Source: Eledone cirrhosa
Taxonomy: Eukaryota
Length of the DNA: 64,000 nt
Assembly (NCBI GenBank): GCA_964016885.1
Contig: OZ024749.1
Coordinates: 45,880,001 to 45,944,000 of the forward strand
Direction of reading: 5' to 3'
Part shown: positions 26,717 through 64,000 of the stretch, piece after piece
How the letters are laid out: every line of letters starts with the position of its first letter
Position numbering within the stretch: position 1 is the stretch's first letter
Translations under genes and position numbers: made by a program
The notes under the pieces: generated by a model
What the model saw: only the letters and a program-made list of their open reading frames with translations
Database searches by the model: none
What the model was told of the DNA's origin: nothing

Positions 26717-26806
26717 GAACAAATATCATCATGCAATAACATTTGTGATTTCATCAGATAAAATAGGAAGACATGATATGAAGGTTAAAGAACACTTGTG
26801 AATAGT
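26717..26806 (-). mobile_element. Family A fragment with the 5' half of a hammerhead
   Basis: The minus strand reads caagtgttctttaaccttcatatcatgtcttcctattttatCTGATGA...catgatgatatttgtt and aligns with 41824-41905. No GAAA half is present. Confidence 0.7.
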
Positions 26807-27845
26807 CAGTCCTACAAACTGTAGAGTGCTTCTTATCCGATATCTGCATTGCTTTATTGTACTACAATGAAACTCACCTCCTACATATATATATATATAT
26901 ATATATATATATTATATACATATACAGATATATATATATATGTGTATGTGTGTGTGTGTGTGTGTGTGTGTTTGTGTGTGTGTGTGTGTGTGTATGTGTG
27001 TGTGTGTGTGTGTGTATGTGTGTGTTTGTGTGTGTGTGTGTCTGTCTTTCTGTGTGTGTATGTGTTTGTGTCTGTGTCTGTGTGTGTGTAGTTGTCTGTC
27101 TGTATATATATGTATATAAATATATATATAAATTAGGCGGTGCTGATGAAAACTGAACTGGTTTACATTGTTAAAATTCAAAATAAATGTTGCCATATGT
27201 AATTCTCATAGTTCGACCGTCCATAATGCCGCTTCTGTTATTAACTTACGTAATATGTCCTACTGAACATTAGGTTATGGCATCTTGTATACAATGACAC
27301 AATAAGAGGTCTTATAATTACGGTTATATAATACTATTCTGGCTCAACGCTACTCACTCAATAGTATTGTTCTGATTTGAAATATCTAATATTCATATAG
27401 GTTACACATTTCCCACCTTCTTCCTTCATCATCTCTCATATTATCTGCTATACATCACTGTACCTTCCTTCTCCTTGACAAACACCATATCACCATCACC
27501 ACTACAACCACCAGTACGACTACGACCATCACTAACAAACAACAATAACAAATAACACCACCGCTACCACCATGAAGATGAACGCATATTTTCAAAGCTT
27601 TCCGTCTCATCTTTATTCACCATTTTCTTCAATATATCGACGACCCCTTTTCAATATGCCGTCTAATTAACTGTTGTTGCTATTTTTATTCACTTCAATG
27701 TTGCTTTTGCCACTGTTTGTAGTTGCTATTGTTGTTGGTTCTGCTTGTTGTTGCAATGGTTGTTGCCGTTTTTATGTCATATAGTTGCTCTTGTTCTTAA
27801 GTGTGATTCCCCTGCTGATACTATTATTATTATCTTTAGGTCCTT

Positions 27846-28250
27846 GGATCGGCCGAGTGTCTAGCGCGTCGAAATATATTTAATAGTATTTGTTCATCCT
27901 CAACATATATTGAGTTCAAGTCATAACGAAGTCAGCTTTACCTTTCATACTTGCAAGTTCATTTAAATAAAGTAGCAGTTAAGTAGAGTAGTGGCTATAA
28001 GAGCTTTACTCACCCCACAAAATATTAACCTGGTTCCTAAATTAGAAACCATTATTTAACGGTGGTGCTTTGTTATATACAGTTACTAATTTCTTTCGTT
28101 CAGAATTCAAAAGCCGCCGTGGTCATTTTTTGTCCTTCATCCTTCCGGGTTCGATAAGATATAAACCCAGGGAAATATTTGGTGGATATAATTGACATTG
28201 CCTTATCCAACAAATCGCTGGTCCTGTGCGAATGTTAGAAAAATATTATT
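27846..28250 (+). mobile_element. Two tandem old SINE copies
   Basis: gagttcaagtc...ctttacctttcatac...cctaaattagaaaccattatt, then aattcaaaagccgccgtggtc...ttcatccttccgggttcgataag...gctggtcctgtgc...ttagaaaaatattatt. Confidence 0.65.
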
Positions 28251-31200
28251 GTCTTTTTATTGTCATTAATTTTCTATTTCTTATGAATTTACAGGGATGA
28301 GAACATTCGGCAGTGCATCAAACAAAACATTCAGATATATTTATCTATAGACACTTATGTACTGAGTTCATATCATACCTGGTCCCTAAAGTTTATTTAA
28401 CGATACAGACAAAAATATATTTCTCCGCCATCCGCCGAACAAGATGATATGAGATGAGGATTAATAAAATAAAATCCAAACCACAATGATCGTTAATTGA
28501 ATGGTTCTAACCTAAAATATAAAGGGATTGGAAACGTTTTAGGTATCAGATATAATCTAGATCCATCTATTTTTCTTTGGATATTGATATTGCTCTTCAG
28601 GGTGTACTCGTTCATAGTAGCTCAATGAATATCCAACTCTATTCAGGGCCTTCTCACACTTGTTAGAGGGACCTCTACATTGTTGACCTACAACAGTTTC
28701 TACAACGTTAGGAGTTTAGCCGTACTCGCAATCCTGGTCATGGTTTGTTGCGGGTTGTTGAGACTGATACAGAAGAAACAGTTAAGGGTGAAAGCAGTGA
28801 TTATTTGCTTAAACTTTATTGAGACGTATCTGAAGAACTTACGATTTCGGAGTCAGGTTCGATCATCGCATCGATCGTGCTTCGAGCTGGTCGCCAGAGA
28901 AACGACTGTAATATGTCTAATAAATTCTAATTTGTCGCACCACTGATTCTCCGTTTCTTATGTGATATATAAATAAATATATATATATATATATATATAT
29001 ATATATATATATATACATACATATATATTATATATATATTTATATACTTCATACACATCTCTGTCTATTCACCTGAATTTATCTAGTAATATCTATCTAT
29101 CTAACTACTCATAAAGCTATTTATCTAGCTATATATGTATATATAGCGTTGTTACTAATACTTTCAGGAATAACCTCACTACCGCACTTACATAACAAAA
29201 TTTATTTGACAACAAGCAACAATAACAATACAGAAATACCATTTCCAAACAATGCAGAACTAAAGAAATCCATCGGAATATTACAGAAGAAAATATAATA
29301 TTAATATAATACTAATATACATAATAAAAGGAAAACGTAGGAAACGTAAGATTTGATTAGTACTGTGATAAATAAAACTGATGCAGCTGCAGCAGTAAAA
29401 ACAACACGCAACAGCCAATTGATGAACGAACAATAGTAGCTTTTGTTTCTGAAGTGTCAGATTTCACAGAGGCATACCTAATTGATTAAGACACTTAGAT
29501 CTGACACTACAGTTAGTTCATATGTGAATGTTTCCGATTATAGAGAAGAAGAAAAAAAGCAAGATGTTGAAAGACGAGGGCCAGTATGAGAAAGACAATA
29601 TAATAGTTCGCAACATGATATATATATATATATATATATTTATGATATATATATATATGTATATACATATATATATATATATATATATATATATATATAT
29701 ATATATATATATATATATATATGTGTGTGTGTGTGAGTGTGTGTGTGTGTGTGTGTGTGTAAGTATGGCAATCCATCAACCTATATGTTCATCTCATAAG
29801 TATGGATTCATCTATATAGTTGTCTCTATTCTCACAGTATATTTAGATATTTATACAAAACGACACACACACACACGCACACATGTATATATATATATAT
29901 GTATATATATATATATGTATATATATATATATATATATATATATATATATATATATATATATATATATATATATATATATATATAGAGAGAGAGAGAGAG
30001 AGAGAGAGAGAGAGAGAGAGGGGGGGCAGAGGGACAGACAGAAAGAAAAAGAATGGTATCGAGCAGTTTCAAAAGTTTAGTAAAGACTTTACAGAACATT
30101 CTATTTATTTCTGTCATTGAAAGCATATTCTTTAGTAGACCTGCTTCATTTTATAACGGTAAGAATGAGCTGATTCGATGCTTATAGGATACTCATATTA
30201 AGTACGCTATATGGATTCGGGTGCCTATTAAAGTATTAGTATTATTGTTGCTTTGTCAATAATATATGCTATGTCAAAATCCTTATTTTTCAATGTGTCA
30301 TTTTAATCCAAAGAAGGACGATGAAAAGAATCCTCGTGAAATGAAACGGCGGATATATTGTTTATAATTCGTTTCATTGCTGATATTTAGATTTAAATAT
30401 ACATATATATATATATATATATATATATATATATATATATATGTCTGTGTGTGTGTGTGTGTGTGTGTGTGTGTGTGTGTGTATGTATAAATATATATAT
30501 ATAAATATATAATTTAGTTATATATATTTAAATATATATATATATATATATATATATATATATATATATATATATATATATATATATATATATATACATA
30601 TTTCGGCTATTGGAAATTAGCGAAAAGCAACTTCAGAAATGTGTGGCAAGCGCTCAATAGAAACGAGTGAACTAGAGCAATAAACATACGTTAAAAGGAC
30701 AAACACACTGAGATGATGGTTAAACCATTAACCACAAAGCCATAGAAGCGAGCAAGCTATTCGGGTCAAATAAATAATAAAATATGACTGAAAAATATAC
30801 CCGGACGGTGCAAGATATATCTGCAAACGGTGGTAAAATTCAATATGGCGTTTCTGCAACTCCTAAATCAGGTACTGTCTGCTTAAACAAATAATGTTAA
30901 GCTTTTTGTATGATGATCGAACTACGAAGTAACTTTTTCAACAGGCATTTAGTTCTATGCAGAGCTAAGGAACAGACCGTTATCTGAACCCACGTGCGGG
31001 GTCAGAAGGGAGAGACACCCTATTTTTGGCGGATGAATTCAGTATGTGTGGTTATTGCAAAATTGCAAAATATCACAAAATGAATTAAGCTCTCGACAGA
31101 ATAGTTTATAAATTTAACATAAGCTATTAATCAGTCAAAAGAATTAACTAAACAAATTGCATATATATATATATTTATATATATATATATATATATATAT

Positions 31201-62982: not shown

Positions 62983-63038
62983 TAGATTTGACACAAACAG
63001 CGAATATTTACGTAGTAAGAGAGAACAAATTACCGTAG
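62983..63038 (+). CDS. Candidate internal coding exon, 56 bp (RFDTNSEYLRSKREQITV), product unknown
   Basis: Branch-like tactgat, then a long T run and CAG acceptor (AG at 62981-82, tandem AG at 62984-85). The donor is AG|GTAAGA at 63039. One frame is open and contains an RSKR motif. Confidence 0.5.
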
Positions 63039-63940
63039 GTAAGATTGCCAGTTATCGGCGAATAACCTATGTCATTAGCATCAGCAGGTGGTCTGTCGAT
63101 GTCACGTGAAAGAAAAAAGACCGGGAAACAGCGGGATACCGTTGGGAAACGGAAGAAAATTTTCCTAATTACGGGCGGCCGTATAAAGCGATGCAAGGGA
63201 TTGGAGAACTGAAAGAGTGGGAAGGTGAGAAATATTAAAGAGAGAGAGATAAGGGGAGAAGAGGGAAAGAGAAACATGTACTAGGGGTAGGGAAAGAGAG
63301 ATTGATTCACATAAGCTCATGCACAAATATACACGCACACACATAACATGTCATATATATATATACACACATATGTACACACATACACACACACACACAC
63401 ATATAGAAGTAGGAATATAGATAGGAAAGTAGACAGATAGATTGTTATTTATATAGATATACATTGATAGATAGATTGATATATAAAGAGAGAGAGAGAG
63501 TGAGAGAGGAAGAGAGATAGATAGAGAGAGAGAGAGAGTGAGAGAGAGAGAGACAGACATACTTCTAGACAGAGGGATAGAGTGAGAGGAGCTAGTTGCT
63601 ATGATAGAAAGCTAGTTGCTATGATTTTAACTAATAATAAGAAAAGTATATAAGGTGATGGTGTTAGAAACGAGAAAACGGAATTATGCATATGTATGAA
63701 CATATCATGGAAGAGGCTAAGAAATTGACAGACAGAGAGATAGACAGATAAATATATATATATATATATATATATATATATATATATATATATATATATA
63801 TATATATATATATAGAGAGAGAGAGAGAGAGAGAGAGAGATAGATAGATAGATAGATAGATAGATAGATAGATAGATAGTTTTATAAACAAATATTGACA
63901 TACCCTTAAGAGAATGCGACCATAACACTGATCTAAATTA

Positions 63941-64000
63941 TATGTTATCTGATGAAAGCGCAGCATAATTTGCTTTGGTGTCCTTGAAATATATATAATG
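63941..64000 (+). ncRNA. Type I hammerhead ribozyme, family A (cut by window end)
   Basis: tatgttat-CTGATGA (63949-55)-aagcgcagcataatttgctttggtgtcctt-GAAA (63986-89)-tatata-ta-atg. The 3' strand of stem I runs off the window. Confidence 0.65.

Follow-up and report, generated by a model that had tools for sequence, protein, structure and literature searches.

The 64,000-nucleotide (nt) stretch of Eledone cirrhosa DNA described here, referred to as the window (G000:C9:45880001-45944000), belongs to a genome of 3.0 Gb that is rich in AT and in microsatellites. Six sites in the window carry hammerhead ribozyme sequences. They are probably the truncated ends of Penelope-like retrotransposons of the Hydra clade: pseudo-long terminal repeats (pseudo-LTRs) inserted in (TA)n, with hammerheads predicted to be of the dimer type; downstream of the ribozyme, a twofold RNA module likely determines where their 3' ends fall. 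The module contains two copies of a hairpin motif, and two main types of 3' end are distinguished: the short (S) end lies just 5' of motif 1, and the tailed (T) end just 5' of motif 2. Penelope-like elements are the sister group of telomerase reverse transcriptase (RT), and the making of their tail and inverted ends is named as an open question by Craig et al. 2021 (PMC8557442). No protein-coding part of such an element lies in the window.

Six hammerhead sites in the window

All six sites proposed in an earlier note are present, with the core nucleotide C3 at 26757(-), 33804(-), 37872(+), 41866(+), 47357(+) and 63949(+); the minus-strand coordinates by which sites are named are the low ends of their segments. 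A loose hammerhead descriptor recovers six distinct sites in the window, three of them from this group, as compared to 0.27 per shuffled window. The 5' strand of stem I and CTGANNA occur in 6/6 sites, and the continuation GAAA-N6-TA in four (47349 reads AAAA, and 26717 lacks that half). The stem III palindromes ATATATAT and ATGCGCAT are both seen as described, and the shared upstream motif GGTATGTCA lies at 37845(+), 47319(+) and 33835(-), with a fourth, inverted copy at 63904(-). The (TA)n tract said to follow three of the sites within about 35-50 nt starts 39 nt (41858) and 51 nt (47349) past the predicted cut on the plus strand; for 37864, the distance of 46 nt counts from the end of a 25-nt triplication. 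The arms and their partners are as follows.

26681-26801, minus strand: decayed pseudo-LTR arm of family A2, with the hammerhead 5' half and a 12-bp stem II hairpin (C3 26757); GAAA and stem III lost
26807-26886, plus strand: partner arm of the 26717 insertion, made up of tail sequence that includes GAGTGCT (26824), the 3' half of motif 1, and has its tail end in (TA)n
33679-33971, minus strand: arm of family E with a short end near 33700; its hammerhead, 33812-33748, has C3 at 33804 and a predicted cut after 33756
34004-34034, plus strand: partner arm of the 33750 insertion, the final 31 nt of the tail, then (TA)n
37807-38021, plus strand: family D arm with hammerhead 37864-37922; short end, then (TA)n
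41788-41794, minus strand: 7-base inverted stub between (TA)n and the main arm, matching the family A1 tail end but too short for proof
41799-41971, plus strand: arm of family A1, short-ended before (TA)n, in which hammerhead 41858-41928 is intact
47287-47463, plus strand: arm of family B, short-ended before (TA)n, with hammerhead 47349-47413
63880-63923, minus strand: inverted 5' piece of the 63941 insertion, containing GGTATGTCA (63904); limits approximate
63924-64000, plus strand: family B1c arm, core intact, C3 63949, predicted cut after 63997

The six sites had been taken for copies of a single family, and this does not hold: they match five or six separate sister families. Used as queries, four of the window copies each lead to a high-copy family of their own, with 912, 1177, 1641 and 715 candidates at first look, of which 40 were scored in each case; 26717 and 63941 match two further subfamilies. 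Nor is the claim confirmed that the divergent stems II of all six copies still fold; 41858 alone beats its shuffles (z -2.8), and the other five score from -1.1 to +0.5. The core is intact in 33750, 41858 and 63941 and broken in 26717, 37864 and 47349. Core and family-like stems together are intact only in 41858 and 63941, which differ little from natural family copies; the other four are decayed, with damage to core or stem. Stem II of 33750 has one base deleted and several changed, the 37864 hammerhead has a G8 to T change, a deletion and the triplication (37896-37972), and 47349 has a G12 to A change (47394) and two changes in stem II. Judged from the sequences, much of the variation among the six window copies is decay after insertion.

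The hammerhead of 41858 (C3 41866, G12 41909, predicted cut after 41920) has a 16-bp stem II with a C-U mismatch and the stem III palindrome ATGCGCAT. The 37864 arm begins at an initiator-like A (37808) preceded by an extra G (37807), and the 63941 arm, which extends over the window edge, continues (locus L039) into a complete tail that has motif 1, and into (TA)n. The insertion at 33750 has one S and one T end, that at 26717 a T arm and a decayed arm, and that at 41858 an S end and a possible 7-nt T stub.

The elements and their predicted ribozyme

Elsewhere in the genome, related copies extend upstream of the hammerhead through a 3' untranslated region (UTR) of about 1 kb into an open reading frame (ORF) with RT and GIY-YIG. 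This link is seen at L131 and L133 (family A1), L137 and L139 (family E) and L192 (family B), and in family D with an N-terminal ORF; the fuller copies L131, L133 and L192 run from a pseudo-LTR through the ORF to a second pseudo-LTR. The order of the full element is an initiator-like start, the hammerhead 115-130 nt further on, the module, the ATG, the RT + GIY-YIG ORF, the 3' UTR and finally the second pseudo-LTR. The two pseudo-LTRs of L192 are 3,676 nt apart. The unit of about 3.7 kb is thus above the “generally under 3 kb” tendency of Hydra elements, which is not a defining trait.

The proteins contain RLRW, DKT, YRDD, CxCX5C, CxxC and CxH, and the GIY-YIG signature VYxC..YFG. The Hydra markers (DKT for DKG, the CxCX5C linker, and CxxC and CxH around conserved E and N) are found in families A1 and E and partly in B; RLRW is followed by I or R, where the Hydra criterion is RWK, and a further Hydra criterion, absence of CCHH, was assessed by eye. 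This motif set fits the Hydra clade as PMC8557442 defines it, and the assignment follows from that fit. The proteins also closely resemble Hydra-1_Obim in a comparison by eye. There are 204 protein homologues, and among the 120 listed at least one carries PF00078 and at least one PF01541. The Neptune clade, a first guess, and likewise Nematis were rejected; the CX2-5CxxC linker is absent in five ORF pieces.

The descriptions of the Hydra clade in PMC8557442, including Hydra-1_Obim, share with the present elements a C-terminal GIY-YIG, DKT, the CxCX5C linker and the CxxC/CxH flanks, as well as (TA)n targets, a hammerhead near the 3' end, an inverted truncated copy and a tail at one end. The present elements differ in their unit length and 1-kb 3' UTR and in a tail of about 90 nt as compared to 30-40 nt. 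Relative to the Hydra hammerheads listed there, Hydra-1_Obim among them, they have a long stem II with a fixed C-Y mismatch and an 8-nt RYRY palindrome.

At least (TA)3 flanks 147/172 S ends and 142/158 T ends. Some elements sit in (TA)n left by the insertion of another family (L130 1824-2179; L011, L071 and L073), which may explain local clusters.

A strict type I hammerhead pattern has 55,007 exact matches in the genome (one per 54 kb), and the reversed pattern has none. Fifteen subfamily representatives were picked from the listed matches, several of them by a pattern that demands the core, so that the invariance of CUGANGA, GAAA and UH in 15/15 is to be read with that selection in mind. 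Stems I, II and III surround the core, the sequence ends lie in stem I, and 96.8% of cells are paired. Stem II is built of three R-Y pairs, C opposite C or T in 15/15, and then a family-specific stem. The earlier note proposed covariation and chance pairing as checks. At family level, 6/7 stem II pairs change on both sides, and the paired fraction of 96.8% compares with 34-62% in slid registers. The covariation score was reached by 0/500 shuffles, a comparison in which kinship alone can let related sequences beat the shuffle. A crude flank-based tree requires about 15 changes between Watson-Crick pair types in stem II; the figure for position 4, which has no Watson-Crick types, is an artefact. 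Stem I is nearly invariant and therefore uninformative on covariation.

Eighty-seven copies unselected for an intact core indicate where selection acted. Private mutations fall on the core at 1.28% and on other sites at 1.45% (p 0.77), whereas shared variants occupy 0/53 core columns and 34/465 other columns (p 0.038). That private mutations ignore the core and shared variants avoid it supports selection on the ribozyme in source elements, with genomic copies left to decay, a situation already known for such elements. The earlier suggestion of selection in active source elements thus finds support in the family-level data; the six window copies themselves do not show it.

The pattern with any loop III has 56,210 genome matches, and in 55,007 of these the loop is RYRY. 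Among the subfamily representatives it reads GCGC, ATAT, ATGT or ACGT, each self-complementary if G-U is allowed, and in a set of 198 copies it is self-complementary in 185. Stem III costs about 3 kcal/mol as a monomer, and the 8-bp intermolecular form gains 2-10 kcal/mol. The Rfam hammerhead models gave no match at gathering score in four full loci and none among the best 150 of 284 weak matches in the window; the Rfam matches in the window were rejected as microsatellite-driven miRNA noise.

Neither the kind of ribozyme nor the clade is new here; the copy number is very high. The Penelope hammerheads of Cervera and de la Pena 2014 (PMC4209133) are likewise type I with a long stem II and a short palindromic stem III, and occur there too as many families with covariation, mostly single truncated copies and predicted dimers. 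Compared with the account in that paper, the present ones lack both the extra base ahead of stem II and a fixed G10.1-C11.1 pair (A-U in 8, G-U in 4 and G-C in 2 of 15), and their copy number of at least 55,007 stands against roughly 4,000-9,000 for coelacanth and Xenopus. Non-LTR retrozymes (PMC7229834) also combine a type I hammerhead with high copy number (126,247 in axolotl); in contrast, the present copies form no short tandem arrays and are truncated ends of coding elements.

A reading of the copies as non-autonomous retrozymes, in which short units in tandem are propagated through small circular RNAs, is largely refuted and carries hardly any weight. The copies are short, very abundant and of type I, and retrozymes have been proposed to derive from pseudo-LTRs (10.64898/2026.07.22.740005). 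However, head-to-tail units of 170-400 nt are lacking: 0/44 same-family neighbour pairs lie on the same strand within 500 nt and 41 are head to head, and the arms continue into 3' UTR and ORF.

Other hammerhead-like families are present in the window. An inverted pair at 22780-23410 (cores 22880- and 23022+) has motif 1 in its plus arm at 23295, a similar motif stands ahead of (TA)n at 30678 on the minus strand, and further cores of other families lie at 28820-28915(+), 45770(+) and 53525(+), these three upstream of (TA)n, and at 1347(-).

The twin-hairpin module and the insertion ends

The module, about 140 nt long, is laid out as end S, motif 1, arm 1, then end T, motif 2, arm 2, and its arms are complementary and covarying. 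Each motif is a predicted hairpin of the form RCTC-loop-GAGY-RCT, followed by one strand of a helix of 10-12 bp. Since the same motif precedes each helix strand, the fold would be pseudo-twofold. The module is seen in families A1, A2, B, F, B1c, D and E, with the ATG 19-55 nt after it, and its fold scores z -3.2 to -3.8 against shuffles. In nine sequences, 5/11 pairs of the central helix change on both sides and 96.8% of cells are paired, with G-T tolerated. Motif 2 and arm 2 were noticed first in families A and B; their presence in D and E was then predicted and borne out. The retrieval patterns demanded no more of motif 2 than its 5' half, and its 3' half, together with arm 2 and ATG, is present in most of 16 D/E loci, several with point changes; L224 is a chance match. 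A tandem satellite with a 47-nt unit that includes GAGTGCT occurs at G000:C1:31830600-31838000; it dominates a loose twin-motif pattern, whose total is unused, and its loci (L207-L223) are excluded from every count.

Marine metagenomes contribute 77 related loci, 33 with enough 5' sequence to evaluate. Two motifs stand before the ATG in 19/33 and at least one in 27/33, as compared to a background of 0.024 per 330 nt inside ORFs; the near-palindromic form of the motif inflates the reverse-strand control, 0.42. In 28 distinct elements (24 from metagenomes and 4 from this genome), the two arms of the same element pair at -10.9 kcal/mol and swapped arms at -5.4. The metagenome elements end at S in seven cases, at T in four, elsewhere in four and at contig edges in 11, so that 11/15 informative ends lie just before motif 1 or 2. 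By eye, the published consensus Hydra-1_Ajap (sea cucumber) has the motif twice before the ATG, and Hydra-2_Ajap and the coral Hydra-2_Amil have it once, in the tail. The twin motif is thus visible in the consensus sequences of PMC8557442 and goes unmentioned in the passages of that paper drawn on here. No description of it was found in literature searches, which extended to sources other than Lunse et al. 2017, Repbase, Dfam and supplementary figures, and the module and the pairing rule described below look new. Both GAG..GCT motif halves also precede the ATG in a more distantly related family whose hammerhead is a different one, with stem I CTGC/GCAG (L204 1270-1700).

The 3' ends are bimodal (162 S, 157 T, 25 read-through, 16 other and 3 at a locus edge), and lie about 4-15 bases 5' of each motif. 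Among 116 head-to-head pairs, 94 are classifiable, as 89 ST, 4 TT and 1 SS; twelve have a read-through arm and ten an unclassified or edge arm. Loci chosen without regard to end type give ST in 31/32 pairs, and ends chosen independently would produce no more than 50%. According to PMC8557442 and PMC3846280, the tail is frequently confined to one end; their relevant passages give no count. At the S and T positions, contigs from two sequencing runs likewise end loosely in (TA)n, an observation with no bearing on expression. A splice acceptor at the tail start was rejected as a general reading, as families D and B1c have no AG there.

It is very improbable that the module serves translation or RNA stability and that the nearby ends arise merely from TA-rich stretches annealing to the target. 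The fixed position of the module before the start codon and the microhomology to (TA)n at both S and T ends are in line with this view. Other TA-rich stretches of the pseudo-LTR are nevertheless seldom used (16 other ends versus 319), and one S plus one T end per insertion and the doubling of the motif are left unexplained.

A different hammerhead family in (TA)n forms a head-to-head pair at window positions 58385-58964 (cores 58583- and 58702+) with a perfect junction hairpin. Of its arms, one is short and one carries a tail of 63 nt that lacks the twin motif, and the one-tail rule may extend to another clade.

Starts, templates and a proposed route of insertion

The predicted cut is preceded, at 115-130 nt, by an initiator-like A at which the 5' junctions cluster (14/124 arms as compared to 2.1 expected per bin). 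By hand count, the base before this A is G in 36/61 genome-wide junctions where the element has C (27/47 in family D and 9/14 in family B); the background is about 19%. Copying of the cap as G occurs in other retrotransposons. The shared start and the extra G make it likely, from junction sequences, that the short copies derive from capped, uncut sense RNA. The motif GGTATGTCA sits 37-42 nt past the element start and is absent from the A families. By analogy with Drosophila virilis, it may be a promoter element or a splice donor; an internal promoter within the pseudo-LTR is described for the Penelope element of that species (PMC2377424).

A measured precedent is Poseidon PAc of Anolis (Frangieh et al. 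2024, PMC11167929), in which two internal starts likewise bound the tail, the target is AT-rich, the uncut RNA is the main template, and both target strands are cut and extended. The PAc starts lie at one AC-rich stem-loop inside the ORF, whereas those proposed here lie in the 5' UTR, before two motif copies joined by a covarying helix; a one-of-each rule per insertion is unquantified in the sections of the PAc paper that bear on it.

The two starts and the two-strand extension measured for PAc suggest one cDNA per (TA)n end. The element protein, probably as a dimer, would bind both motifs and cut both (TA)n strands, and each DNA end would prime one cDNA, one at S and one at T, the two then joining head to head. 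Most copies would be short because RT runs off the capped 5' end, copying the cap as G. Since the 3' pseudo-LTR never holds both motifs, copying of the ORF needs a complete module behind it. This could come from a tandem transcript or from a hammerhead-cut circle, between which the data do not separate; such circles are proposed in PMC4209133. In the least certain step, to which about an even chance is given, the hammerhead would cut as a dimer through its palindromic stem III; cutting both pseudo-LTRs, followed by ligation, would put the complete module behind the ORF on a circle and make full-length and tandem copies possible.

Taken as a whole, it is proposed tentatively, with confidence slightly short of even, that Hydra-clade elements as far apart as those of coral, sea cucumber and this genome have in common a pseudo-twofold RNA with two equivalent docking sites for a dimeric telomerase-like RT, that each cut (TA)n end primes its own cDNA, and that a hammerhead circle puts the dock behind the ORF. 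If true, the twin dock explains the tail and the head-to-head repeats of Hydra-clade elements. The twin module would represent a defined clade-wide cis-element with a rule that can be counted, namely that each insertion has one end of the short and one of the tailed kind; this makes the question of tail and inverted ends addressable by single mutagenesis experiments.

Several observations weigh against these readings. Direct Pfam scans of the element ORFs gave no significant RT or GIY-YIG match, and several long ORFs examined are broken or have no N-terminus. The motif is absent in 6/33 evaluable metagenome loci, and hosts are partly shared. Outside any ST pair within the examined flank are 141/319 S or T arms, a count in which stubs under 25 nt are invisible to the end typing. 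The ends overlap (TA)n by microhomology and are therefore intervals, and the short ends of family B, at -15 to -10, lie further out than those of other families. In family D, 16/27 of the G cases read ATG; because ATG is found again 6 nt into the element, some of these could have arisen by slippage. Finally, the bin at the predicted cut site holds 3 of 124 arms; with no pile-up of junctions there, cleavage leaves no direct trace.

This last point also favours the view that the hammerhead is a passenger or regulator dispensable for transposition, kept by its own spread or by limiting element RNA, with long copies made from tandem read-through transcripts. Such a view is quite possible, if somewhat doubtful, and compatible with the twin-dock model, of which it replaces the final step only. 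Hammerhead mutants have no effect on insertion in vitro in the PAc work (PMC11167929), and the Naiads thrive without a hammerhead according to PMC8557442. The invariant core and covarying stems of the 15 subfamilies argue against it, as do the RYRY loop III (55,007/56,210) and its self-complementarity (185/198).

A further alternative retains one RT start, at T, and derives the S end from endonuclease re-cutting or resolution of fold-back DNA, with the motif read as DNA. It is unlikely, and it has precedents in the literature: the tail is ascribed to endonuclease resolution by Craig et al. (PMC8557442), the D. virilis tail is required for endonuclease recognition as reported in PMC11167929, and head-to-head repeats through self-priming on an antisense template were proposed by Arkhipova 2013 (PMC3846280). 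It likewise predicts one tail per insertion. The inner spacer of the motif, however, ranges between 8 and 26 nt in length, which does not resemble a site in double-stranded DNA, although single-stranded DNA may fold; G-T is tolerated in the central helix; and two RT starts were measured in the related clade (PMC11167929). The extra G indicates a sense, capped template and argues against the antisense self-priming model.

The window also contains repeats of other kinds. Weak matches to the family E short end lie beside (TA)n at 24195-24287, 30489-30589, 46324-46379, 55720-55822 and other positions, and may be stubs or low-complexity noise. Long inverted repeats from other repeat families lie beside (TA)n at 23515-23614 and 41993-42105. 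A dispersed repeat of about 200 nt occurs at 6334-6497, 8478-8677, 15783-15983, 16404-16585, 17803-17962 and 43053-43478, and is also nested within the family E element in L139.

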